Shown: positions 6,404-43,627 of the stretch, piece by piece
Numbering within the stretch: the stretch's first letter is position 1
How the letters are laid out: each line of letters opens with the position of its first letter
Origin: Folioceros fuciformis
Lineage: Eukaryota
Assembly: GCA_049999805.1 (NCBI GenBank)
Contig: JBNGIO010005973.1
Coordinates: 66,877-130,876 of the forward strand
Direction: 5' to 3'
Length of the DNA: 64,000 nucleotides
Notes under the pieces: model-generated
Told to the model about the DNA's origin: nothing
Database searches by the model: none
What the model saw: only the letters and a program-made list of their open reading frames with translations
Position numbers and translations under genes: made by a program

Positions 6404-8886
6404 ATGGCTCCAGCAGTGGCCTTCCTCTCCGTGTGCCTCCTGCTGGCAGGCCTGGCATCCGCATTTGGAGATGCCGATGGTGCCAAGACGTACATCATCC
6501 ACATGGCCAAGGACCACAAGCCGTCCTTGTTTCTCACCCACGATCACTGGTACCTCAACACTCTGGCGTCCATCAAGGGCAACGTGCTGCGACAGCGCGA
6601 GGAGGCAGAGGAGCTGGAATCTGACCCCTTGGTCCACGTCTACGACACCGTGTTCCATGGCTTCGCAGCCAAGCTCACGGATGCCCAAGTCCAGCGGCTT
6701 CAGGAAGTCCACGGCTTCCTGGCCATGTTCCCGGACACGGTGAAGCAGCTGCACACAACCCACACCCCGGAATTCCTGCAGCTGAACGCGTCTTGGGGGC
6801 TGTGGCCGGAGGCAGACTACGGCGAGGATGTGATCATCGGAGTGCTGGACACTGGGATCTGGCCTGAGAGCCAGTCCTTCTCGGACCACAAGATGGGTCC
6901 GATCCCTGCTCGCTGGAAGGGCACCTGTGTGTCGGGCACCGACTTCGATGCCAGCATCTGCAACAGGAAACTCATCGGTGCCACTTACTACGTGCGAGGC
7001 TACGAGGCATCGAGGGGCCCTGTGAATGAGACCCTGGAGTACCGATCTCCCAGGGACAGCGAGGGTCATGGCACTCACACATCCTCGACTGCAGGTGGAA
7101 GGTATGTGTACAAGGCAAGCCTGCTGGGCTATGCTCCGGGAACTGCCAGGGGCATGGCTCCCAAGGCCAGGGTGGCCATGTACAAGGTGTGCTGGGAGAC
7201 TGGATGCTACGACTCCGATATCCTGGCTGCATTCGACCAGGCTGTGGAGGATGGGGTGGACATCATCTCTCTGTCTGTCGGCGGGGCAGTGGTGCCATAC
7301 TACCTGGACTCCATCGCCATCGGATCCTTCGGAGCTATCAAGAAGGGAGTTGTGGTGTCGTGCTCTGCAGGGAACAGTGGGCCGGGACCTCTGACTGTGG
7401 CCAACATCGCCCCCTGGGTTATCACAGTCGGAGCTAGCACTGTGGATCGTGATTTCCCTGCCTTGGCCAAGCTCGGGAATGGGGTGTCCTACAAGGGAGA
7501 ATCTCTTTCGAGTGGAGTGGCTCTGTCCAATGACGCAGAGTACGATCTGGTGTACTCTGGGGATGTTGGGTTTGGTTCGGGAAACTCGTATTCTGCCAGT
7601 CTCTGCATGGCAGGGACGCTGGACCCGGCGAAGGTGAAGGGGAAGGTGGTGTTCTGTGATCGTGGAACCAATGCCAGAGTTGAGAAGGGTTGGACCGTGA
7701 GCAATGCTGGTGGTGTAGGCTTGATTCTGGCAAACCAGGAGGTTGACGGTGAAGGTATTATCGCTGATGCTCACATCCTGCCTGCTGTTGCTCTGGGCCA
7801 CAATGCTGGTGCCCTTATCAAGAGCTACATCTCTTCCACCAAGAACCCCAAGGCCACTATCACCTCCGGTGGGACTGTGTTGGGATACTCCCCAGCCCCC
7901 GTGGTTGCATCCTTCTCTTCCCGAGGACCCAATTCCCTGACCCCTCAGATCTTGAAGCCTGATGTGACTGGGCCTGGAGTGAACATCCTTGCTGCGTGGA
8001 CTGGTGCTACAGGACCTACCGGAATCACTTCCGATCCCCGTCAGGTATGGCTCGCCCTCTTCACGCAAGCCGCTTCTTGCTGCATTGCCGTGCCGGCTCT
8101 CGCTTTTATCATGCCATCTGTTGTCCCCTTCCTGCAGTGCTGTTTTCTGATCATCTGAGGCGGTGTCCTGTGTTGCAGGTGAAGTTCAACATCATCTCTG
8201 GGACATCGATGTCATGCCCGCACATCAGTGGCCTGGCTGCCCTGATCAAAGCTGCGCATCCTGACTGGACCCCATCTGCCATCAAGTCTGCCCTCATGAC
8301 CACAGCACATGTGACCGACAACCGCAACTCTCTCATCACCGACGAGGCAACCGGAGAAGCTTCAGACCCCTTCGGCTATGGTGCCGGCCACGTGGACCCT
8401 CAGAAGGCTCTGAACCCAGGTCTGGTGTATGATCTGGAAGAGGAAGACTACGTCCACTTCCTGTGCGCCCTGAACTACTCTGCCAGGTCCCTGCAGATCG
8501 TGACACAGGACCCCACTGTGTCTTGCCCAGACACAGTCCTCACCTTGGCAGACTTCAACTACCCTTCCTTCTCGGCAGTCTTCGATGAGAGCACCACCAA
8601 AGTCCTGGAAACCAAGTTTCACAGGACGGTCACCAATGTGGGCACGGCTTCATCCACCTACGTGGTCACCACCAAGGCACCGGGAGACATCAAGCTCACA
8701 GTCAACCCCGAGAAACTCGTCTTTACCGAACTCAACGAGAAGCAGAGCTTCACGGTCACAGTTGCAGCTGAATACGAGGACCTTTCCCCGGGTCAGTCGG
8801 ACACGGTGTTCGCACACATCTCCTGGACTGACGGCACCCATGTCGTCCGTAGCCCAGTTGGGATTACCAGGCAAGAACATTTCTGA
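6404..8886 (+). CDS. Subtilisin-like serine protease (SBT1-type subtilase), 2 exons: 6404-8044, 8179-8886
   Basis: Signal peptide, I9 prodomain (TYIIHM...LHTTHTPEFL), catalytic motifs VLDTG, HGTHTSST and SGTSMSCPH, PA domain and C-terminal Fn3-like domain. A GT-AG intron at 8045-8178 joins the two ORFs in frame. Confidence 0.95.
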
Positions 8887-10753: not shown

Positions 10754-12238
10754 ATGGCTGTGGACGCTGCGACCCTGTCCCGTATAGGGCTGGCTGGGCT
10801 GGCCGTGATGGGGCAGAATCTGGCCCTGAATATCGCGGAGAAAGGGTTCCCGATATCTGTGTACAACCGTAGCAGCAGCAAGGTGGATGAGACTGTGGAG
10901 CGGGCGAAGCAGGAGGGAAACCTGCCTCTCCGGGGTTACTACACTCCCAAGGATTTCGTGCTGTCCATTCAAAAGCCTCGGTCTGTGATCATTCTGGTGA
11001 AGGCTGGAGCTCCGGTGGACCAGACGATCGAGACTCTGTCCGAGTTCTTGGAGCCCGGGGACTGCATTGTGGATGGTGGGAATGAGTGGTACGAGAACAC
11101 GGAACGGCGGGCCAAGCAGGTGGCAGAGAAGGGGCTGCTGTACCTGGGGATGGGGGTGTCTGGAGGTGAGGAGGGAGCCCGGAATGGCCCGTCTCTGATG
11201 CCTGGAGGCACTCCTGAGGCTTATCATTACATCGAGGATATTGTGAAGAAGGTGGCTGCCCAGGTTGACGACGGCCCGTGTGTGACATACGTTGGGAAGG
11301 GAGGATCTGGGAATTTTGTGAAGATGGTGCACAATGGGATTGAGTATGGGGACATGCAGCTCATCTCGGAAGCTTATGATGTGCTGAAGTCTGTCGGAGG
11401 GTTGACCAACGCGGAGCTGCACTCGGCCTTCAGCGAGTGGAATAAGGGAGAGTTGGAGAGTTTTTTGGTGGAGATTACTGCGGATATCTTTTCCGTGAAG
11501 GATGATAAGGGAGATGGGGAGCTGGTGGATAAGATTCTTGACAAGACGGGTATGAAGGGGACCGGGAAGTGGACTGTGCAGCAGGCTGCCGAGTTGTCCA
11601 TCGCTGCCCCGACCATTGCTGCCTCCCTGGATTCTCGGTTTCTGAGCGGGTTGAAGGAGGAGAGGGAGGCTGCCGCTGCGATCTTCAAGGAGGTTGGTGT
11701 TGGTGATATTCTGGGTTCCAAGAATGTGGACAAGACGCAGCTGGTCGACGATGTGAGGAAGGCCCTGTACGCCTCCAAGATCTGCAGCTATGCCCAAGGC
11801 ATGAACCTGATTCGTGCCAAGAGCATTGAGCAAGGGTGGGACCTGAACTTGGGCGAGCTAGCTCGTATCTGGAAGGGTGGTTGCATCATCCGTGCCATCT
11901 TCCTCGACAGGATCAAGCAGGCCTACGACCGCAACGCCAAGCTGGCATCCCTTCTGGTGGACCCTGAGTTCGCGAAGGAGATGGTGGACAGACAGGCCGC
12001 ATGGAGACGAGTGGTGAGCTTGGCCATCAGCGTTGGTGTGAGCACTCCAGGTATGAGCGCCAGTCTTGCCTACTTCGACACGTACCGCAGGGCACGGCTC
12101 CCTGCCAACCTCGTGCAGGCCCAGCGAGATTACTTCGGTGCCCACACCTATGAGCGGGTTGATGCCGAAGGTGCGTTCCACACAGAGTGGTTCAAGATTG
12201 CCAAAGGAGCCAAAGTCCCCACCGGTGCCCGTGTATAA
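10754..12238 (+). CDS. PGD: 6-phosphogluconate dehydrogenase (decarboxylating), intronless CDS
   Basis: GLAVMGQNLALN Rossmann motif, VKMVHNGIEYGDMQLI, MKGTGKWT, QAQRDYFGAHTYER. Confidence 0.97.
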   Translation: MAVDAATLSRIGLAGLAVMGQNLALNIAEKGFPISVYNRSSSKVDETVERAKQEGNLPLRGYYTPKDFVLSIQKPRSVIILVKAGAPVDQTIETLSEFLEPGDCIVDGGNEWYENTERRAKQVAEKGLLYLGMGVSGGEEGARNGPSLMPGGTPEAYHYIEDIVKKVAAQVDDGPCVTYVGKGGSGNFVKMVHNGIEYGDMQLISEAYDVLKSVGGLTNAELHSAFSEWNKGELESFLVEITADIFSVKDDKGDGELVDKILDKTGMKGTGKWTVQQAAELSIAAPTIAASLDSRFLSGLKEEREAAAAIFKEVGVGDILGSKNVDKTQLVDDVRKALYASKICSYAQGMNLIRAKSIEQGWDLNLGELARIWKGGCIIRAIFLDRIKQAYDRNAKLASLLVDPEFAKEMVDRQAAWRRVVSLAISVGVSTPGMSASLAYFDTYRRARLPANLVQAQRDYFGAHTYERVDAEGAFHTEWFKIAKGAKVPTGARV

Positions 12239-17465: not shown

Positions 17466-18054
17466 CCCTGCTCGCCGAACTAACCCCTTCTTTCTCCGAA
17501 GGGATTCCTTGCCTTCCAAACCCCAAGTCTACTTCTCTTCTCTAGCACGTCACCCTGGCTCTCTTCACGATCCACCTTCCACAGCCTTTGCTTCTCTCAA
17601 ACCCACACGCCTCCCGGACCCTTGTGGCTCTCCTTTGCGCTACTCAGAAAGCGTGTCCGGCAAGTCCGCTTATATCACCGGAACTTGCTCCCCTCCGAAG
17701 TTGCGCGCAACCTTCCGATATTCCAACACATTCCAGGCTCTTCTTTTCCAAGGGGTACTGCAACTTATATGTACTTATACGCTGGACATTTAAAGATACA
17801 GTAATATTTTTCTAAAAAGGATTAGAAATATTATATTATTATTATTATCTCTAGTTCTAAAAAACAATAAATAATAATTTAACTCACATAGCGAAGTGTA
17901 CCTACTCGAAAGCACCGAATTCAGGACAGAAGTGGTGTATCCTGAGGACCCTAAGNNNNNNNNNNATGTGCATAGGGTGGGAAACTCGAATGTGAACACA
18001 TACCACCCTAGACGGCCTAAGCTTTGGTTACGAACAAAGCCCGGATCTACTTGT

Positions 18055-23019: not shown

Positions 23020-24381
23020 TCAGTCTCTGGTGGCTTTCCGACTTGTCGTCGCGGTTTCCCTGACCACTCCTGCGGACACCAGAAACTCATCCAGGGTGGA
23101 AAGCGTCCTCATGTCGGCCTCCGGAAACACGACTCGCACTCTCCTAAACAGGTTGAGGATTTGAAGCCAGAAAGGTTCCTCCTTCTCCGGCCGGTGGGTG
23201 ACAAGATCATCCAGAAATGCGAACGCCGCCAGCAAATCGTTCCCGTTGGCAGTAATAGGGGCTGCAAAATGCGCTGGGATAATGCGCTTGAATTTCCAGT
23301 CCTCCACAATGGCGTCCACCCAATCGCGCACCGCATCTGGCGCCTTGTCGAACACCAGCGTCTTGACGATCGGAGACACGATGAGGCGCTTCGAGATCTG
23401 CGAGAACGTGCCTCTGGGCTCCAGCAGATTCGCAGGCCCTAGGAACAATATCTGCAGCACCATCCTCTCCCACCCCCGCTGCCGAGTTCTCGCATTGTCC
23501 ACCAGCGGCTCGTCGGGGATCTCCCGCCCCTGGCTCAGCAGCCGCACGGCCAGGTTGTTCTTGGCCGCGTCCAGCAGCGACTTCCGGCTCACCACCTCGG
23601 GGGGCTCCTTGGGGACCAGGATCACCGCATCCGTCACCAGCAGCGTCTGGCTCCTCCGGTGAAAGAAGGCCACCTCCACGTACGGCCCGATGCCCACGGG
23701 CGAACTCAGAACCTTGAACTCCAGCTCCCCCGCCCACGGCATCTCCGGGTCCCCCTCCTGCAGCTCCCGCGCCCCGAAGATGCCCAGAAACTCCAGCGGG
23801 AGGTCGAGCGGCCAGCTCCACAGCCGCGGAGCCACCCACACCTCCGCCTGCGGGAACTTCCGGGAGAAGGGCCCCACGAAGATCTTGTGCTCGTACGCGA
23901 AGGTGGGCAGCACGATGAAGCCCACCGGCGCCCCGAGCTCCTTCACCAGCCGCACGCACTCCGCCGTGGGCGCGATGGGCGCGTGCACCCACAGCTCCCC
24001 GGATTGCAGCTTGATCACTGTCATCCGCGTGTTGGTGCTCACGCTGGTGAATCCCAGCGCCTGCTGCTGCTCGAACGTCCACACCCGCCCCCGCTCCACC
24101 TCCTTCCGGATCGTCCTCCGCGTCAGGAACGGCCCCAGCGGAAACGGGAACCCCGTGATGTTCACATACCACCTGCCGCCTCCTCCCGCCTCCTCCTCTG
24201 GCTGCGACGCCGCCCTCCACACCTGCCTCCCCCTGCTGCGCCATGTCCGTCCAGGGCCATCCGCTGCAACGTAGCAGGAGGAGCAGCTGCATTCCCCATT
24301 CCCCGCCCCGCGCAAGCTGGCCCGACGCAGAGACGTGGACAAGGCGTGGTGAGGCGCCCACGCCGTTGCCATCGCAGCCAT
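23020..24381 (-). CDS. DUF4336-family chloroplast-targeted protein, intronless
   Basis: Transit peptide; FPFPLGPF..RRTIR, RMTVIKL..GELWVHAPIAPT, EHKIFVGPFSRKFP, IIPAHFAAP. Confidence 0.85.
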   Translation of the reverse strand: MAAMATAWAPHHALSTSLRRASLRGAGNGECSCSSCYVAADGPGRTWRSRGRQVWRAASQPEEEAGGGGRWYVNITGFPFPLGPFLTRRTIRKEVERGRVWTFEQQQALGFTSVSTNTRMTVIKLQSGELWVHAPIAPTAECVRLVKELGAPVGFIVLPTFAYEHKIFVGPFSRKFPQAEVWVAPRLWSWPLDLPLEFLGIFGARELQEGDPEMPWAGELEFKVLSSPVGIGPYVEVAFFHRRSQTLLVTDAVILVPKEPPEVVSRKSLLDAAKNNLAVRLLSQGREIPDEPLVDNARTRQRGWERMVLQILFLGPANLLEPRGTFSQISKRLIVSPIVKTLVFDKAPDAVRDWVDAIVEDWKFKRIIPAHFAAPITANGNDLLAAFAFLDDLVTHRPEKEEPFWLQILNLFRRVRVVFPEADMRTLSTLDEFLVSAGVVRETATTSRKATRD

Positions 24382-24694
24382 CCCCGCTTGCGACAGGAGC
24401 CAACAAAGCCTCGTCGACTGGCTCCTCGTGTCGTGAGGTCTTTCTTCCTCACAAACTCGACCCACAATTCGTCCATAGCTGACCCACCCCATGATTGATC
24501 CAACCGATCACCTTCCCTTACCGCGCTTGCTCAGTTGGCTGAGCACCGGGTTAATACTTCCGAGGTCTAAGGGTCGAACCTCCCTACGGCACCTCCAATT
24601 CCCGTCCACCCTGCTCTGTACAGCAGATTATGATCCCGTGAGGGGTTTGGGTGGCCGACGAGGTCCCTCTCCCTCTCTCAGCATACTCTTCTCT

Positions 24695-25456
24695 TTACTC
24701 GTCTTCGTCCATGACTTGCTTCACCACCTTCACCTCCGGAATGTAGTGCATCAGCATATTCTCAATGCCCGACTTGAGGGTGACGCCCGAGCTGGGGCAG
24801 CCGCTGCAGGCGCCCTGCATCCTGAGGGTGACAGTCCCAGTGGCCGGGTCGAAGCCGCGGTACTCGATGTCCCCGCCGTCGTCGCGAATTGCCGGGCGGA
24901 TCCTTGTCTCCAGCAGCTCCTTTATCATGGCCACGGTTTCGGAGTCGGTGTCGAGGACGGTCGTGTCCGAGAGCCTCAGAGGCTGGGCGTTTGTGAAGAG
25001 GGGAAGCCCGCCGGTGTAGAACTCCATGATGACCGCGAAGATTTCCGGCTTCAGGATCTCCCAGGACTGCTCCTCGGACTTGGTGACCGTGACGAAGTCG
25101 GAGCCGAAGAAGACCCGAGTGATGCCCTCCACCCCGAAGAGGGCCTTGGCAAGAGGGGAAGCCATGGCGGAGCGGGCGTTTGGGAAGTCCGCGCTGCCAG
25201 TTTCCATCACAGGCTTGCCCGGGTAGAACATGAGGGAGGAAGGGTTCGGCGTGCTCTGCGTCTGGATGAAGATGCTCCTTCGCTGTTGCACTCCATGCTG
25301 GAAGGGTGGAGAAGATGGCCGGATGACGGGTTCGGCGACTGGCGGCAGGCCTCGTCGTCCTGCTACCTGCCACAGATCCCTGATATGATGCACAGGCATT
25401 GGCCTCCTTGGGCTCTTGGCGAGCAAGTGTCTCAGGCACCTCGAGGATGTGGCCAT
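24695..25456 (-). CDS. NFU4: Mitochondrial NifU-like Fe-S carrier (NFU4/5-like), intronless; alternative ATG at 25465
   Basis: Presequence, [60 protein letters not shown]. Confidence 0.93.
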
Positions 25457-25531
25457 AGCTCGCATTTTAGGTCTTGTCCTTCTCCTTCGTCCAGGTGTGA
25501 AGCTGGGTACAACTTTTCCTAGAAATAACTA

Positions 25532-26499: not shown

Positions 26500-27513
26500 T
26501 CACAGCAACTGCTTCTCCTTCTTGGCCTTGAATCCCTCCACGCGCTGCCCTAACCACTCCTGAATGTCGTTCACAATGACAGCCACGTTCTCATCCGGCT
26601 CGCCTTGAAGCAGGCTATGGAGCATCCCTTCGTACACTTTCAGCGTCTTGTCCTTGCTCCCAGCGGCGGCGTACAGAGCCTTGCTCACAGCGGGATCCGT
26701 TACCACATCCGCGTCTCCATGGATCACCAGCATTGGCAAGCTCACATCCTGGAGCCTGGATCCCAGATAGTCCGTCACTCTGAGCAGCTCCGCCACCGTC
26801 CCGAGCCTCGGCTTCCCCGCGTACCTCCTGGGATTGCACTTGGCCAGCAGCTTCTTTCTGGGGTCCTTCACGGACTTGTCCACCAGATCTGCCGTGGGCA
26901 CCACGGCCCAGGTGGGCGCGAACTGCGCGATGGCCTTCAGCACTGCTGCGATAGGCCATGCCGGCTTCACGTTGTCCGAAATCTTGCACATGGCAGCCAC
27001 CAGAATCGCGCCATCCCAGCCATCAGGCTCCGCGAAGTGCACCAGCAAACAAATAGCTCCTCCTAGAGACTCCCCGTACAGGAAGGCTGGGAGGTGGCGG
27101 AACTCCTCCTTCTCACGCACGGTACGGAAGAATTCGGAGCAATCGGACGCTACGGCGTCCAGGTCCGGGGTGAATGCCCGCATTCCGTCGGATTTCCCGT
27201 GCCCCTCCAGATCCAGAGCTGCTGCCGCGTACCCCATTTTCGCAAACATCATCGCCGTGTTCTGGAACGTCCAGCTGGTGTCGTTCCCGTACCCGTGCAC
27301 CATGCACACCAGAGCTTCCGGCTCGGACTCTAGCGGAATCCATAGCTGCGTGAAGAGCCTGCTTCCGCGGGCATTCGTGAAGAGATTCCTGCTGTTGCGT
27401 ACTCCCTGCTGCCTGTAATGTTCCTCCTCCGGTGTGTCTCCCCACGGGAAGGGCGGGGGCTGGAAGACGTCGCCTGGCTGCTGTTGGCTTTTCTTTTCCC
27501 CTGCACCCGCCAT
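26500..27513 (-). CDS. Alpha/beta hydrolase, monoacylglycerol lipase (MAGL)/caffeoyl-shikimate-esterase family, intronless
   Basis: HGYGND, LEGHGKSDG, nucleophile GESLGG, HGDADVVTDP, YEGMLHSL. Probable ATG 27513; the ORF extends to 27645. Confidence 0.9.
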   Translation of the reverse strand: MAGAGEKKSQQQPGDVFQPPPFPWGDTPEEEHYRQQGVRNSRNLFTNARGSRLFTQLWIPLESEPEALVCMVHGYGNDTSWTFQNTAMMFAKMGYAAAALDLEGHGKSDGMRAFTPDLDAVASDCSEFFRTVREKEEFRHLPAFLYGESLGGAICLLVHFAEPDGWDGAILVAAMCKISDNVKPAWPIAAVLKAIAQFAPTWAVVPTADLVDKSVKDPRKKLLAKCNPRRYAGKPRLGTVAELLRVTDYLGSRLQDVSLPMLVIHGDADVVTDPAVSKALYAAAGSKDKTLKVYEGMLHSLLQGEPDENVAVIVNDIQEWLGQRVEGFKAKKEKQLL

Positions 27514-27724
27514 AGCCTGGGCTGCGTGCGCGCGCTTGCAGCTCACCAAGACATGGACTCCGCTAATCCTGGATGCCAGGACGCCTGCAAGCCCCAGCCC
27601 CGACCAATGCGATGCTGCGATAGCTTGCATCGCCCAGCTTACCATAAAGGCGTGGCACGAAACCTAACATGCATTCGGCCAAATTGGTAGCCGTGAGCTC
27701 AAATTTGGGCGAGAGGGAAGGCAG

Positions 27725-30731: not shown

Positions 30732-32033
30732 ATGTCGGGTGAAAAGGGAGGATTGTCGAGAAAGAGGTTGGCGACTCGGCAGCTCAGAAGAGAGGATTCA
30801 TCCGAAGATTCGGATGTGGAAGATGGACCAACGCAGGCTACTTTTCGCAGAGCAAGCGATGAAGTGTTAGCCACCCGAAGGATTATCAAACTGTGTCGTA
30901 AGGGGACAGCTTTTCCAGGGGCAAATCCCTTCCGCGCTGCACGCTTGGTGGCACCTGCCTCGTCCCAGGAGGCGGAAATTCTGCCTCTAAGCTCCGACAG
31001 CAGCAAGGATGGAGCGGAAGGATGGAGCAGTCAGGGGGCCCGGATTTTGGGTAGCAGCTCGTCTGAGATGTCAGATGCTAAGAGTCGGCCGCGGGTGGTT
31101 GCTGAAGCCGAGAGGAGTTCTGGGAGTGTGGGCCCTGTTAGAGCAGCACTCAAATCCGACAGTGTAGGGAACGGGCAGGACGCGTCCAAGCCAGAGAGTG
31201 CCATTTCCGAGGGATCAGTGGATGGGATTCAGGGTGAGACAAAACAGTCACCGGTTGCAGAGAAGAACGGGGAAGATGCAGACCCTCAGGCCCTACCTCC
31301 TCGCCGGGTTAATTCTGGCCACAGCGCATCTGGCGTCGGCGGGACCTGTGATTTCATTACGCCCAACACTCCACTTTGCGGGTTTGCGTCCTTCAGCTCC
31401 TCTGTTCGGCCAGCATTTTCTTCGACGAACAATATGTTTGGGATATCGGGTGCAGGAGCTCTGCCGGGCTTTGACACGCCGTCTTTTGAACCTGTGTTTG
31501 GAAGACTCCGGCAGTCCAGCTTCGAGTCTGCTACTGGATTGTCATCCTCTGCACCAACTGACACCAATGGCCCAAGCATTGTCTCTCTTCAGGTAATACA
31601 TGTAGAAACAGGAGAAGAGAAGGAGGCAACCGTCTTCACAGCCGATGCAACGTTGTTCGAATACATCAACAACGCGTGGAAGGAACGGGGCAGAGGTGAA
31701 GTCAAGTTGAATGTTTCCCAAGAAAAAGCCTGTAAGCCAAGACTTGTCATGCGCTCCAAGGGAAATCTGCGTCTCCTGCTCAATGCAAGCCTATTTCCGG
31801 ACATGAAGGTGTCCAAAATGGACAACCGAGGCGTCAGCTTTGCATGTGCCAACAGTGCAGCTGAAAGCAAAACAGGACTTGCTATGTATGGATTGAGGCT
31901 TAAAGATGCCTCGGTGGCTCTGGAGTTCTTGGCCCTAGTTGATTCTCATAAGGGAGACTGCCTGGTGGAAAACACGGATTCTGAGAGTCCTAGAGAAAGT
32001 AGAGACGAAACAACAGAAACACGGGCACAGTGA
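30732..32033 (+). CDS. NUP50: Nucleoporin NUP50-like with C-terminal RanBP1 domain, intronless
   Basis: N-terminal KRLATRQL...TFRRASDEVLATRRIIK; C-terminal VETGEEKE...WKERGRGEVKLN...RLVMRSKGNLRLLLNASLFPDM. Confidence 0.88.
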   Translation: MSGEKGGLSRKRLATRQLRREDSSEDSDVEDGPTQATFRRASDEVLATRRIIKLCRKGTAFPGANPFRAARLVAPASSQEAEILPLSSDSSKDGAEGWSSQGARILGSSSSEMSDAKSRPRVVAEAERSSGSVGPVRAALKSDSVGNGQDASKPESAISEGSVDGIQGETKQSPVAEKNGEDADPQALPPRRVNSGHSASGVGGTCDFITPNTPLCGFASFSSSVRPAFSSTNNMFGISGAGALPGFDTPSFEPVFGRLRQSSFESATGLSSSAPTDTNGPSIVSLQVIHVETGEEKEATVFTADATLFEYINNAWKERGRGEVKLNVSQEKACKPRLVMRSKGNLRLLLNASLFPDMKVSKMDNRGVSFACANSAAESKTGLAMYGLRLKDASVALEFLALVDSHKGDCLVENTDSESPRESRDETTETRAQ

Positions 32034-38469: not shown

Positions 38470-38960
38470 ACGGGCAAGATGAACGGTGATGGATGTCCAG
38501 CCTGACAATGCTTTCGAACTCCCGCATTACCTTCTCTGTATCCTTGTGATCTTTACAGGCAATTCAGCCAAGCTGCCCACAGCATAACTTTGGCCCGGCC
38601 CTCACATTATATGAACATGACTGTTCTCGGCCACATTCATGATATCCAGCACGTCTAAGAAGACGAATTATGCAAATTCCAAAGACCTCCTCAGTAGTGG
38701 TACCATGCTGCCATCGAATGAAGGTGCTTGCGATCCTCATCCACCATGGATCCCCTATGCTTCTAGAGGGCAAAGGAAAATGAGCATCATTAGCGTCAGT
38801 ACTGGCAACTAAGATCTGCTCAAAACAGGCTGGTGGTGCCCTGTGGTCGTCATCACAAGTACCATAGCCAGGTATCATGACATTGCACGTAACCACATCG
38901 TTTGTGGCCATGCAAATCTTGCCACCTTGCACAGGCCGCAGAAGGCAAGAAAAAGTTGTT
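38470..38960 (-). pseudogene. Decayed PLS-PPR/E-domain fragment, paralogous to the adjacent PPR-DYW gene
   Basis: Frameshifted remnants TNDVVTCNVMIPGYGTCDDDHRA, VDEDRKHLHSMA and ACKDHKDTEKVMREFESIVRLD match P2/L2/E1 of 39055-41775. Confidence 0.75.
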
Positions 38961-39054
38961 AAACATGGTCGGCCAGAGGTAGCCCAATTTATCCTACACA
39001 ACAGCTACAGTTATGTCCAAGCCCTCGCTGAGCACTTCTATTTCTTGCTCCTTC

Positions 39055-41775
39055 TCATGGTCGACCCTTGCAAGTGCAAGAACCATCGGCAAACCGATGC
39101 ACACGGTAACCGTCCCTTACAACAATGTCTCTCTGTTCCAGCCTTGACATGATCTCCGTTGAACTGTGGCAATCACTGCACATTCGTAGATTCTTCGTTA
39201 CCACCAAAGGTGTCCCACTTGGAGTGTTCAAGAGACCATAGGCTAGGGCTAGTTTCTCAGCATGTCCACACAGCGCGTCTTCCTTTTCCTTCTCACTCAG
39301 TGGCTTCAACACCAAATTTGTGTGAGGTATGTGGCCTCCTTCATGCTTCACACGTGCATTTATGCTCTCTACCTTTAGCGCAATATCATGTTCTGTTCTT
39401 TCCCCCACCACAAACGTATGAACCTGCTGTTTCACCTCAATGGTCGCCACTGCAGGTTTCTTGTTAGCTCCTGCTACCAGCCTCTGTGTTTCAATCCTGT
39501 CTACATCCGTCCACCTACCTGCATCTGCATAAGTATTGGCCATAAGCACGTAAGCAGACGCCCGCTGGGGGTCCAGCCTAACGATGCTTTTGAAACACCA
39601 CAGCGCCCTATCTACATCCCCATGACTTTTGCAGGCATTCAACAAAGATGTCAAGCCCACAAGATTACTTTGACTCTCACATGATAACAGCATGGTCTCA
39701 GCCTCATCTAAATTGCCTACACGCCCAAGAAGATCAACCATACAATTGTAATGGTCAGTAGTAGGTTTTAGGCCATGCTGTTTCGCCATGGAATCGAAGT
39801 ACTTGCAACCCTCATCCACCAGTCCCTCATGACTGCATGCTACTAGAACGCAAGTAAAAGTCGCATCACTAGGCTGAACACCGGCAACTAACATCTCCTC
39901 AAAACAAGCTAGTGCCTTGTGACCTTCATCACAGGCACCGTACCCAGATATCAGGGCAGTCCACGTCACCACATCCTTTGTGGTCAAGCTGTCAAAAACC
40001 CCGCGTGCATCCTCCAGTTTGCCACATTTTGCATACATGTCCACCAGGCAAGAGCCCAACACCACGCAATCCAGCAGTCCACTTTTTACAATCTGTGAGT
40101 GCAGCTGCCTGCCTTTCTGTAAGGCACCAGTGCTTCCACAGTACTTCAGCAGGCAAGCAAACACAAACTCGTCAGCCAAAATGAGGCCCTCCTCCTCCAT
40201 TTGTCCATACAAAACAAGTGCCTCGTGTCCGAGCCCTTGCTGCGCATACCCAGCAATAAGCGCTGTCCATGTCACCACATTTTTTGTGGCCAGGCTGTGA
40301 AAAACCTGGCGCGCATCTTCCATTTCACCACATTTTGCGTACATGTCCACCAGGCAGGTGCCTACCAGTATGTCATTCAGCAGCCCTCTTTCAACAATGA
40401 GTGAGTGCAGCTGTCTGCCCCTCTGTAGGGCACCAGTGCCGGCACACGCCTTCAGAAGGCAAGCGAAAGTGACATGGTTAGCCAAAATGTGGCCCTCCTG
40501 CTCCATTCGCTCATACAGAACAAGTGCCTCCTGTCCAAGGCCCTGCTGGGCATATGCAGCTATGAGGGTAGTCCATGAGACCACATCCTTCGTGCTCATG
40601 CTATCAAAAAGATGGCGTGCCTCTTTCAGTTCACCACATTTTGCATAACCAGATATCAAGGCATTCCATGTCACAACATCCTTCGCAGGCATGTTGTCAA
40701 AAACGTGGCGTGCATCTTTCAGTTCGCCACATTTTGCATACATATCCACCAGGCAGTTGCCAACAAACAGGTTAGTAGGAATGCCACTGCGCAACACATC
40801 ACGGTGCACTTTTCTGCCAGATTCCAAGTCAGCGCCAAATGCACAAGCTTGAAGGGCAGCCACAAAGGCGTGACCATTCGCCTTCACTCCTGACCTACGC
40901 ATCTCATGGTACAATTGTATTGCCTCATCATGTTGCCCATGCTTGGCATACGCAGAGATGATGGAACCCCACGTGATAACATCTGGTTTGCCTACCCTGG
41001 TGAACACATCCATGGCCTCCTGTAGCCTACCTCCACCTGCATACATGCGCAGGAGATGGTTCCCCAAGTATGCATTCGATTCGTACCCAAATTTAACACA
41101 CAGATCATGGACGCGTCGTCCCACAACCAAATCCTTCCTAGCTGTACACAGTTTCAGCACAGAGCCAAACAGAGAGACCGAAATAGCAGAGTCTATGTGC
41201 GCCAGAGATTCAAGGGCTCCAACGGCCTCAGAAAGCTTCCCCTGCTGGCACAACGTGCTCACGGTCACAGCCGTAACCACGTCCACATCCGACGTTCCAC
41301 GCCTCCCAGGTTCAGGCTTACCCGGAGCGCTGGGCTGGGAAGGAGAGGCTCCATGTCCCATCTGCGTATCCAAGGAAACGATCTTCTCATCAACCCAAGC
41401 TGGCTTAAAAGTGTGGTTCAGCCACAGCACCTCCCCGGACCCCTTACGCCGGAAGTCAGGAGAACGGGAGCTCTTCTTATCTCGTCTGTTGTCCCACCAC
41501 AGGGTAGGATCCAGAAAAAACTGTTGCCACAAGTGCTCCTGGTCCTGGCAACGACCGGCGTCGCTGGACAATCCGTCCCCACTCACAAACGTTCTCGGAA
41601 GTGGAAGTGGAAGAGGAGGTGCTGGCCTCCTTACGCTGCAGCACCTGGAGGCTCTGTACGCCAGTGCTTGACTCCCTAAGATGAGGTGAGCGGGAGCTCC
41701 TGGTGGGATTCCTGTACCAACACCAACTGAAACTTGCTGGGTCATCAGCGGCTCCCCCAGCCATACTGTGGCCAT
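39055..41775 (-). CDS. PLS-class PPR protein with E1/E2 and a DYW:KP (GRP-ending) deaminase-like domain; candidate organellar U-to-C RNA editing factor with an N-terminal PDF motif; intronless
   Basis: About 16 P/L/S motifs; KKPAVATIEV in place of the PG box; HAEKLA and CSDCH zinc ligands; C-terminus CTCKGRP. Confidence 0.93.
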   Translation of the reverse strand: MATVWLGEPLMTQQVSVGVGTGIPPGAPAHLILGSQALAYRASRCCSVRRPAPPLPLPLPRTFVSGDGLSSDAGRCQDQEHLWQQFFLDPTLWWDNRRDKKSSRSPDFRRKGSGEVLWLNHTFKPAWVDEKIVSLDTQMGHGASPSQPSAPGKPEPGRRGTSDVDVVTAVTVSTLCQQGKLSEAVGALESLAHIDSAISVSLFGSVLKLCTARKDLVVGRRVHDLCVKFGYESNAYLGNHLLRMYAGGGRLQEAMDVFTRVGKPDVITWGSIISAYAKHGQHDEAIQLYHEMRRSGVKANGHAFVAALQACAFGADLESGRKVHRDVLRSGIPTNLFVGNCLVDMYAKCGELKDARHVFDNMPAKDVVTWNALISGYAKCGELKEARHLFDSMSTKDVVSWTTLIAAYAQQGLGQEALVLYERMEQEGHILANHVTFACLLKACAGTGALQRGRQLHSLIVERGLLNDILVGTCLVDMYAKCGEMEDARQVFHSLATKNVVTWTALIAGYAQQGLGHEALVLYGQMEEEGLILADEFVFACLLKYCGSTGALQKGRQLHSQIVKSGLLDCVVLGSCLVDMYAKCGKLEDARGVFDSLTTKDVVTWTALISGYGACDEGHKALACFEEMLVAGVQPSDATFTCVLVACSHEGLVDEGCKYFDSMAKQHGLKPTTDHYNCMVDLLGRVGNLDEAETMLLSCESQSNLVGLTSLLNACKSHGDVDRALWCFKSIVRLDPQRASAYVLMANTYADAGRWTDVDRIETQRLVAGANKKPAVATIEVKQQVHTFVVGERTEHDIALKVESINARVKHEGGHIPHTNLVLKPLSEKEKEDALCGHAEKLALAYGLLNTPSGTPLVVTKNLRMCSDCHSSTEIMSRLEQRDIVVRDGYRVHRFADGSCTCKGRP

Positions 41776-42477: not shown

Positions 42478-43627
42478 GTTCTCAGCGAAGCCGGGCTTCT
42501 TTGTCGTGAGCAGGTGGTGAAGGCGCCAACAGGTCACAAGAACTTGCCGCGTCCTCTGGTTGAGAGCTTCGGCGTTTCGGCTATGTGCATACAGGTTGTC
42601 CGCGGAGGTCTCGTCTTTGTTGACTGCCTGGTGATATACAAAGTCTATCCCCTGTCACCGGGATAGTTAGACGTTCTCCTCTTGATTTTATGCTGTTGTA
42701 CATAGCCTATCCTGTGCGACAGTCGTCCTTCATTTCAAACCCGGCTTCTCTTCTGCCGGATCCAGGTTAAGGAAACAGTTCAATTCACTACGTAACCTTC
42801 TTGCATGAAGTCGAATTCCGACGTTCAACGCTGTTGCACATCCTACAGGAGGCACACAAGCGTCCCAGGATCAGATGCTTTAATTCGACTTGCATCACTC
42901 TCTGTAAACGTGAAGCTGCAGGGCCGCCTGTCCTAAGTATGTCCTGCTGTGACTGTCGACCTATCGTGGCATTCCACCTCAGTTCTCATGGAAGCAGGGC
43001 TTTATCCTTATGAGCAGATGGTGAAGACACCGACAGGTCACAAGACCTTGCCGCGTCTTCTGGTTGAGAGCTTCGGCGTTTCGGCTATGTGCATACACAC
43101 ACGTTGTCCGCGGAGATCTTGTCTTGTCTTGTTGATTCCATGGTAATGTACATGGTCTATTCCGTGCCACCGGGATATGTACATAGGTCTGTTCTCCTCT
43201 TGATTTTATACTGTTGTACATAGCCTATCCCGTGTGATTGTCGAACTTCATTTCAAACCTGGCTTCTGNNNNNNNNNNGGCCCAGATTAAGGAAACAGGT
43301 CAATTCACTACGTAACCTTCTTGCATGAAGTCGAATTCCGACGTTCAACGCTGTCGCGCTTGCACATCCTATGGGAGGCACACAAGTGTCCCAGAATCAG
43401 GTGCAACCATGCTTGAATTCGACTTGCATCATCACTCTCTGTGCATGTAAAGCTGCAGGGCCGCCTGTCCTATGCCCTGCTCTGAATGTCCTCCTAAGGC
43501 CCGCCTGTCCTATATCCTGCTGTGAATGTCGTCCTATCATGGCATTCCACCTCACAACATTCTTCAGAGCCAGGGCGTCAAACACACGTTCAGCGTCCTC
43601 GAGGCTGCCACGCTTAAGGCTTGGCAT
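42478..43627 (-). pseudogene. ~500-bp tandem duplication with a degenerate PPR remnant
   Basis: 42480-42980 is duplicated at ~42985-43550. The minus-strand remnant KRGSLEDAERVFDALALKNVVRWNAMIGRHSQQDIGQ is an S1-P1 PPR junction. Confidence 0.7.

Follow-up and report, generated by a model that had tools for sequence, protein, structure and literature searches.

In the RNA editing of plant organelles, both site recognition and catalysis are provided by PPR-DYW proteins, on which programmable C-to-U and U-to-C editors are also based. A 64,000-nucleotide stretch of Folioceros fuciformis DNA (contig JBNGIO010005973.1, positions 66,877 to 130,876; hereafter the window, whose numbering is used throughout) contains a gene, P0001, for a candidate protein of this kind. 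Its product carries, between an N-terminal presequence and the PPR array, a short module resembling the Pro-Asp-Phe (PDF) motif of the plant OSB proteins, which bind single-stranded DNA (ssDNA). The locus raises the question of whether this module is a true PDF motif, whether its fusion to an editing factor is peculiar to this gene, and what it could contribute there. The analysis described below indicates that the PDF-PPR architecture is real, widespread, and apparently overlooked.

The PDF motif of P0001

P0001 is a single uninterrupted open reading frame (ORF) of 906 codons (Table 1). Translation of window positions 41368-41538 on the minus strand gave the peptide EHLWQQFFLDPTLWWDNRRDKKSSRSPDFRRKGSGEVLWLNHTFKPAWVDEKIVSLD, which corresponds, in frame, to residues 80-136. 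It matches exactly the peptide that the original prediction had quoted between the presequence and the first PPR motif, and a 78-residue N-terminal stretch precedes it. This is the only copy of the motif in the window.

OSB proteins are described as having an SSB-like OB fold ahead of at least one Pro-Asp-Phe motif of about 50 residues (PMC6963530, PMC4166229). Residues 79-136 of P0001 contain the roughly 50-residue Pro-Asp-Phe signature as given in PMC6963530. The 57 motif residues were used as a phmmer query against 1.84 billion representative proteins, which returned 555 matches at E ≤ 1e-3; of these, 116 reached E ≤ 1e-10 and 15 reached E ≤ 1e-30. The analysis covered the 150 top-ranked matches. 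A local iterative search located 405 motif copies in these 150 proteins and the query protein. An SSB-like OB domain followed by 1 to 13 motif copies was found in 77 of the best 150, PPR repeats after the motif in 11, and neither part in the remaining 62, which are motif-only arrays or fragments. The Pfam SSB family was present in 9 of 10 non-PPR matches tested, above the curated cut-off in 4 of them.

A hidden Markov model (HMM) restricted to OSB-type proteins was built from the 189 PDF motifs of the 77 SSB-domain proteins. It matched residues 79-136 of P0001 end to end (70.4 bits, HMM positions 2-57 of 59), with an i-E of 7.1e-15 at Z = 1,835,955,588. The proteins behind this model are unnamed and were picked among matches to this same motif, and the OSB label rests on their architecture, as laid out in PMC6963530 and PMC4166229, not on an annotated Arabidopsis sequence. 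The original prediction, which had called the motif OSB-type and proposed an HMM of OSB PDF motifs as the check, was borne out by this significant match (E 7e-15). When P0001 was aligned with 33 single-motif proteins, the columns F, W, D, R, K, P-D-F, L, and W showed no variation, and P0001 retains every one of them. P106, D107, and F108 are invariant both in this 34-sequence alignment and in one of 18 PDF-PPR proteins.

Pfam, which contains no PDF model, assigns no family to these 57 residues even with the threshold relaxed to E ≤ 1. No SSB family was found in P0001 by Pfam at E ≤ 1, and the local iterative SSB-like profile that detects the 77 of 150 matches gives no match in P0001. Because it lacks the OB fold, P0001 is not an OSB protein and shares one module with the OSB proteins. 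We regard the identity of this module as a PDF motif, and its fused architecture, as nearly certain.

The matches also included proteins of other organization. P0003, P0004, P0011, P0013, and P0017 carry 9 to 13 PDF copies in 719 to 1160 residues, mostly with no SSB-like or PPR domain, and such PDF-only arrays are a third motif architecture beside the OSB and PDF-PPR types. In P0044 (1526 residues), an SSB-like domain and three PDF motifs are followed by a kinesin motor (Pfam Kinesin, E 1.8e-86); this may be a true fusion, or two neighboring genes merged by the gene caller.

The editing-factor part of P0001

Behind the PDF motif, P0001 has the organization of a PLS-class editing factor: a PPR array, then E motifs, then a DYW deaminase-like domain. 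Pfam recognizes 11 PPR stretches (PF01535) and a DYW_deaminase domain (PF14432) at residues 814-904 (E 2.4e-32), and about 16 PPR motifs can be counted from helix pairs in a full-length structural model.

DYW:KP domains are distinguished from DYW:PG domains by a Lys-Pro pair, by Ala or Cys in place of Ser behind the zinc-binding His, and by a variable C-terminal triplet (PMC11845758); the hornwort KP variants, DRH and GRP, are named from their last three residues (PMC9478123). In P0001, Lys-Pro (K773 and P774, within NKKPAVATIEV) replaces Pro-Gly, alanine follows the zinc-binding histidine in HAE at residues 838-840, the CxxC is kept as CSDC at 866-869, and the protein ends ...CTCKGRP, with the non-DYW triplet GRP. 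K861 is residue 88 of the last 133 residues and corresponds to the conserved lysine by plain numbering, not by alignment; Lys88 is conserved in PG domains too (PMC11845758). Because of K773-P774, HAE, K861, CSDC, and the terminal GRP, P0001 is, judged by its sequence, a GRP-type DYW:KP protein and a candidate U-to-C editor, and this type suggests a hornwort genome. The KP pair, the HAE, and the hornwort GRP ending agree with the C-terminal domain type originally predicted. The activity of natural KP proteins is described as not yet established (PMC11845758).

Predicted structure and conservation of the module

An AlphaFold2 model of residues 70-145, based on the 34-row alignment, reached a predicted local distance difference test (pLDDT) score of 88.8 and a predicted template modeling score of 0.74. 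It contains a helix, two strands, and a second helix, at positions 3-19, 24-26, 39-41, and 58-70 of the model, which correspond to residues 72-88, 93-95, 108-110, and 127-139 of P0001. In a full-length AlphaFold model built on 18 PDF-PPR homologues, residues 72-139 had pLDDT values of 84-91, while values below 50 were assigned to residues 1-71 and 141-161. The remainder of this model consists of a continuous helical-repeat solenoid (163-767) and an alpha/beta DYW domain (776-906). Because a confidently modeled module is flanked by low-pLDDT stretches, the PDF module is predicted to be a separate folded unit tethered before the PPR array.

With the module model, Foldseek gave no match at E ≤ 1e-3 among solved structures, and the highest Z that VIA-align obtained over 48,161 chains was 4.2, with no chain reaching 5. 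By sequence, no relative was found in the PDB; the best hits (E 0.12) were chlorophyll-binding proteins and were taken as chance. These blank searches show neither novelty of the fold nor a ligand.

Conservation across P0001 and its homologues is concentrated in the module. The alignment of 18 PDF-PPR proteins has 16 invariant columns, 14 of which fall within residues 83-128, and the mean fraction of the top residue is 0.69 for the PDF motif, 0.60 for the PPR part, and 0.31 for the presequence. The presequence, residues 1-78, is taken to be an organelle transit peptide. In intact ORFs from environmental assemblies (see below), the motif likewise sits behind variable Arg/Ser-rich presequences of 26 to 114 residues. 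Because it is under constraint, the motif is probably translated and kept in the mature protein, and the conservation pattern is as expected of a functional domain behind a transit peptide and not of a part of the transit peptide. In sequencing run X1, pieces identical to the gene cover only positions 38800-39149 and 40451-40646, and among the listed run pieces none spans the motif-PPR junction of this exact gene.

Distribution of the PDF-PPR fusion

The original prediction described the fusion on a candidate U-to-C editor and proposed to test its co-occurrence with DYW:KP. Among the best 150 phmmer representatives, 11 match the PPR part of P0001, and Pfam PPR was detected in 9 of 10 tested. 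The number of PDF copies at their N-termini is two in P0050, three in P0007, and one in the others. P0129, with a PG-type box and a DYW end, is the sole DYW-bearing fusion among the 11; the longer ones of the remainder (P0007, P0100, P0087, and P0110) end after an E-like motif, and the rest are short or seem to be fragments.

When environmental assemblies were scanned with the motif alignment, the pattern was matched at least 599 times; 356 of these matches were confirmed, and the 80 top-ranked plant loci were retained. At 59 of these 80 loci, local tblastn placed a PPR match on the same strand 16 to 191 nt behind the PDF motif, a share that is inflated because the PPR-fused type is favored by the search pattern (FFx[ND]PxxWWD) as well as by ranking loci on their similarity to the query. 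The gap is only 16 to 31 nt at 45 of the 59 loci, and 33 of them carry a DYW domain as well. PDF alone was seen at 13 of the 80 loci, 7 of which have less than 460 nt remaining downstream. When loci at least 95% identical were merged, 42 groups remained (21 PDF-PPR-DYW, 10 PDF-PPR, 8 SSB-PDF, and 3 PDF only), so that PDF is followed by PPR in 31 of 42.

An unbroken frame of more than 600 codons that includes the motif was present at 19 of the 80 loci, and of five such ORFs tested with Pfam, all contained PPR and two contained DYW_deaminase. Many other PDF-PPR loci are broken by stops or frameshifts. At L010, L011, L016, L026, L038, L043, L052, and others, PPR and DYW matches lie in several frames and the motif frame is short; pseudogenes or faulty assembly may account for the interrupted PDF-PPR-DYW loci.

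All 33 DYW-bearing environmental loci score higher with the PG-type C-terminus of P0129 than with the KP domain of P0001. HSE is present in 20 of them; the last three residues are DYW in 24 and in no case GRP or DRH. A tie between the PDF motif and the KP type, which we had considered as a candidate, is rejected on the strength of P0129 together with these PG-like loci. A co-occurrence of the motif with DYW:KP over canonical DYW was therefore not seen, and the fusion is special neither to P0001 nor to U-to-C editors, given the 11 PDF-PPR proteins in the best 150 and the canonical PG/DYW end of P0129. The original statement that standard PLS-DYW factors lack such a domain holds for the characterized model proteins only. 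Because PDF followed by PPR recurs in many plant genes, most with a canonical C-to-U type DYW end, the motif is, as far as the sequences go, a general N-terminal accessory of a PLS-PPR subfamily and not a feature of U-to-C editors.

The motif is also repeated within the same or related organisms. In four sequencing runs from these, motif position 41382 is covered by 27, 66, 71, and 66 contigs at least 85% alike, while positions upstream of the motif are covered by only 10 to 19 contigs (runs X2, X4, and X7). In three runs, one contig each contains a joint inside the motif region that goes back by 183 bases, as expected for tandem PDF copies in paralogues. Therefore, the motif is multi-copy in the sequenced organisms. 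Most of a tree of 393 PDF motifs (59 columns) was unresolved: of its 387 inner branches, 214 were open. Motifs fused to PPR repeats were clustered in it, with 9 label changes where shuffling gave 14.9 on average, a value reached in 0 of 500 shuffles. The tree is compatible with a single fusion event as well as with several.

Possible function of the module

PPR arrays bind RNA in parallel orientation: the 5' end of the target faces the N-terminal repeats. Because of this placement, the tethered module, which is basic and rich in tryptophan, would come to lie beside the bases immediately 5' of the PPR footprint. The tether before the first PPR repeat, a disordered linker, measures about 20 to 30 residues in P0001 and only about 5 to 10 in genes that we label "moss-like" by inference. 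In this position, the module could grip single-stranded nucleic acid regardless of sequence, which would raise the affinity or on-rate of the editor and hold the target unfolded. Such help would be supplied in cis, akin to the MORF/ORRM-type help that seed plants supply in trans. By analogy with the OSB proteins, an unspecific single-strand grip in cis is the most likely role of the module, although we hold this tentatively and at somewhat below even confidence. Added unspecific affinity was one of three tentative roles named in the original prediction, beside a nucleoid tether and activity on ssDNA. The PDF motif of AtOSB1 is sufficient for ssDNA binding according to PMC6963530, so that the original attribution of ssDNA binding to the motif in OSB proteins agrees with the reviews. 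A built-in helper would make sense because hornwort and moss editosomes have been proposed to comprise mainly PPR and ORRM proteins (PMC13386178).

Several points count against an accessory grip on RNA. OSB1 and OSB2 prefer ssDNA over double-stranded DNA or RNA (PMC4166229). Editing in general does not need a PDF motif: moss PPR56 edits in Escherichia coli with only 14 residues left upstream of its first PPR (PMC10482289), and U-to-C editing has been obtained with designer KP proteins, which consist of PLS and C-terminal consensus parts (PMC9478123). No similar nucleic-acid-binding fold was found among solved structures, and hence the fold lends no support. The literature searched contained no binding or editing experiment on any PDF-PPR protein, and the count of environmental fusions carries the bias described above. 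Taken as a whole, the explanation that P0001 is a PPR editor on which the PDF module acts as an accessory grip stands, in our judgment, evenly poised between right and wrong.

The preference of OSB1 and OSB2 for ssDNA favors the main alternative, in which the motif binds ssDNA and holds the editor at replication, recombination, or transcription bubbles of the nucleoid, so that editing would be co-transcriptional. The biochemistry in the cited papers concerns ssDNA only, the OSB1 motif suffices for it (PMC6963530), and PDF-PPR motifs score 58 to 80 bits with the OSB-only HMM, with no separate clade resolved. In the "moss-like" genes, the motif stands almost directly before the first PPR repeat. 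Such a short gap is easier to reconcile with a joint RNA surface than with an independent anchor, and we consider a nucleoid tether rather unlikely. A module that steers the deaminase-like domain itself to ssDNA, leading to editing or mutagenesis of organelle DNA, is barely conceivable. Only the ssDNA preference of the OSB PDF proteins (PMC4166229) speaks for it; the PPR array, E motifs, and DYW active-site residues of an RNA editor are intact in P0001, the same module occurs on many genes of canonical C-to-U type, and none of our observations suggests a DNA substrate.

The module might instead bind no nucleic acid and serve oligomerization, docking to editosome or nucleoid proteins, or folding back on the PPR or DYW part. 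AtOSB2 has been reported as a tetramer (PMC6963530), the fold is unmatched among solved nucleic-acid-binding domains, and the invariant positions, for the most part aromatic or hydrophobic, might serve just as well as a protein interface. Such a role is improbable, since the reviews assign ssDNA binding to the PDF motif itself and no observation here points to a particular partner. Finally, the motif would have no role in the mature protein if it were cleaved with the transit peptide, if translation started at Met139, or if it were the relic of a decaying fusion. An in-frame methionine does lie right behind the motif, at residue 139, and many environmental loci are broken, but the motif is the most conserved part across the 18 homologues, folds confidently in the model, unlike the presequence, retains all invariant family positions in P0001, and keeps its place behind presequences of variable length in intact ORFs. 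This makes a motif without any role in the mature protein very improbable.

Returning to the accessory grip, it is possible, if on the doubtful side, that the PDF motif is an overlooked built-in accessory of a large bryophyte (hornwort and moss-like) subfamily of PLS-PPR editors, both C-to-U and U-to-C, giving them unspecific single-strand binding in cis, or else coupling editing to nucleoid DNA. If so, binding in cis may explain how hundreds of sites are edited in the absence of MORF-type helpers. Natural KP editors may also need the motif for full activity, and its omission would then limit designer U-to-C tools. A module that adds single-strand binding would extend the minimal editosome of early land plants by a new component, form an evolutionary link between the organelle RNA-editing and DNA-maintenance toolkits, and offer a simple part to try in improving designer editors. 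Should deletion of the motif have no effect, the finding reduces to a curiosity of domain shuffling.

Comparison with known systems

P0001 shares with the OSB proteins (Arabidopsis OSB1-4) the PDF module itself, including the P-D-F triplet and the invariant W/D/R/K core, and both are nuclear-encoded with an N-terminal presequence. They differ in arrangement: OSB proteins have an SSB-like OB fold in front and their PDF copies C-terminal, whereas P0001 has no OB fold and a single N-terminal PDF motif, followed by PPR, E, and DYW parts. The range of the PDF motif is now wider than the OSB proteins. With the hornwort GRP-type DYW:KP proteins and the designer proteins KP2 and KP3 derived from them, P0001 has in common the PLS array, E1/E2 motifs, KP pair, HAE, lysine, CxxC, and GRP (PMC9478123, PMC11845758). 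The available parts of these descriptions define the hornwort KP proteins by their C-terminal domains, with no N-terminal PDF motif mentioned, and the designer proteins as only PLS and C-terminal consensus parts, to which P0001 adds the N-terminal module.

The principle of a PPR array joined to a second nucleic-acid domain is known from RRM-PPR proteins such as maize PPR4 and similar proteins (PMC9459714, PMC13386178). The extra domains of Physcomitrium PPR proteins named in the accessible part of PMC9459714 are RRM, LAGLIDADG, SMR, NYN, CBS, and SAP, and PDF is not listed there. Such additions are mostly on P-class proteins, whereas P0001 is a PLS-class editor whose extra domain is not modeled in Pfam. 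MORF/RIP, ORRM, and OZ helpers are comparable by proposed analogy only, as accessory aids to RNA binding or editing by PLS-PPR proteins; they are separate, trans-acting proteins of unrelated folds, whereas the PDF module lies in cis, and we saw no sequence or structural relation between it and these helpers.

Surveys of the domain make-up of PPR proteins rely on Pfam-type libraries. Because these libraries have no PDF model, an N-terminal module on dozens of PPR-DYW genes could have gone unseen. PMC13386178, which covers hallmark-domain fusions, contains neither "OSB" nor "PDF". A 2026 survey of 182 OSB genes required an OB fold together with PDF and does not mention PPR (PMC13393729). In the full texts searched, no paper connected the PDF or OSB motif with PPR proteins.

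Genomic surroundings

The neighbors of P0001 are ordinary plant nuclear genes and, apart from a subtilase, apparently intron-poor (Table 1). The subtilase is split over two overlapping ORFs, which suggests an intron or a frameshift near 8047-8158. Five runs of N mark assembly gaps, at 1942-1951, 2272-2281, 2856-2955, 17956-17965, and 43269-43278 (10, 10, 100, 10, and 10 bases, respectively), and none lies inside the PPR gene.

Table 1. Parts of P0001 and neighboring genes, in window coordinates
Feature	Residues	Position	Strand	Basis or remarks
Whole gene P0001		39055..41775	-	Uninterrupted ORF, stop codon 39055-39057; Pfam PPR, E motif, DYW_deaminase
Presequence	1-78	41542..41775	-	Weakly conserved; rich in P, L, G, A, S, R; pLDDT < 50 at 1-71
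PDF motif	79-136	41368..41541	-	OSB-derived HMM, database matches, folded module, invariant columns
Linker	137-165	41281..41367	-	G/S/P-rich; pLDDT < 50 at 141-161
PLS-type PPR array	166-717	39625..41280	-	Pfam PPR and model
E1/E2 motifs	718-772	39460..39624	-	Pfam E_motif (PF20431) at 718-780, E 1.8e-13
DYW:KP-type deaminase-like domain, GRP variant	773-906	39058..39459	-	Pfam DYW_deaminase and residue features
Subtilase		6404-8886	+	Inhibitor_I9, Peptidase_S8, PA, and fn3_6 domains; split over two overlapping ORFs
6-Phosphogluconate dehydrogenase		10754-12238	+	
DUF4336 protein		23020-24492	-	
NFU-type iron-sulfur scaffold		24695-25465	-	
Hydrolase_4 alpha/beta hydrolase		26500-27645	-	
NUP50/RanBP1-domain protein		30732-32033	+	

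Antisense ORFs of 87 to 237 codons lie over P0001, at 40037-40893 and 40958-41679 on the plus strand. Those at 40037-40300 and 40343-40648 start with near-identical peptides, echoing the period of the PPR repeats, and the antisense ORFs are taken to be by-products of these repeats and not genes.

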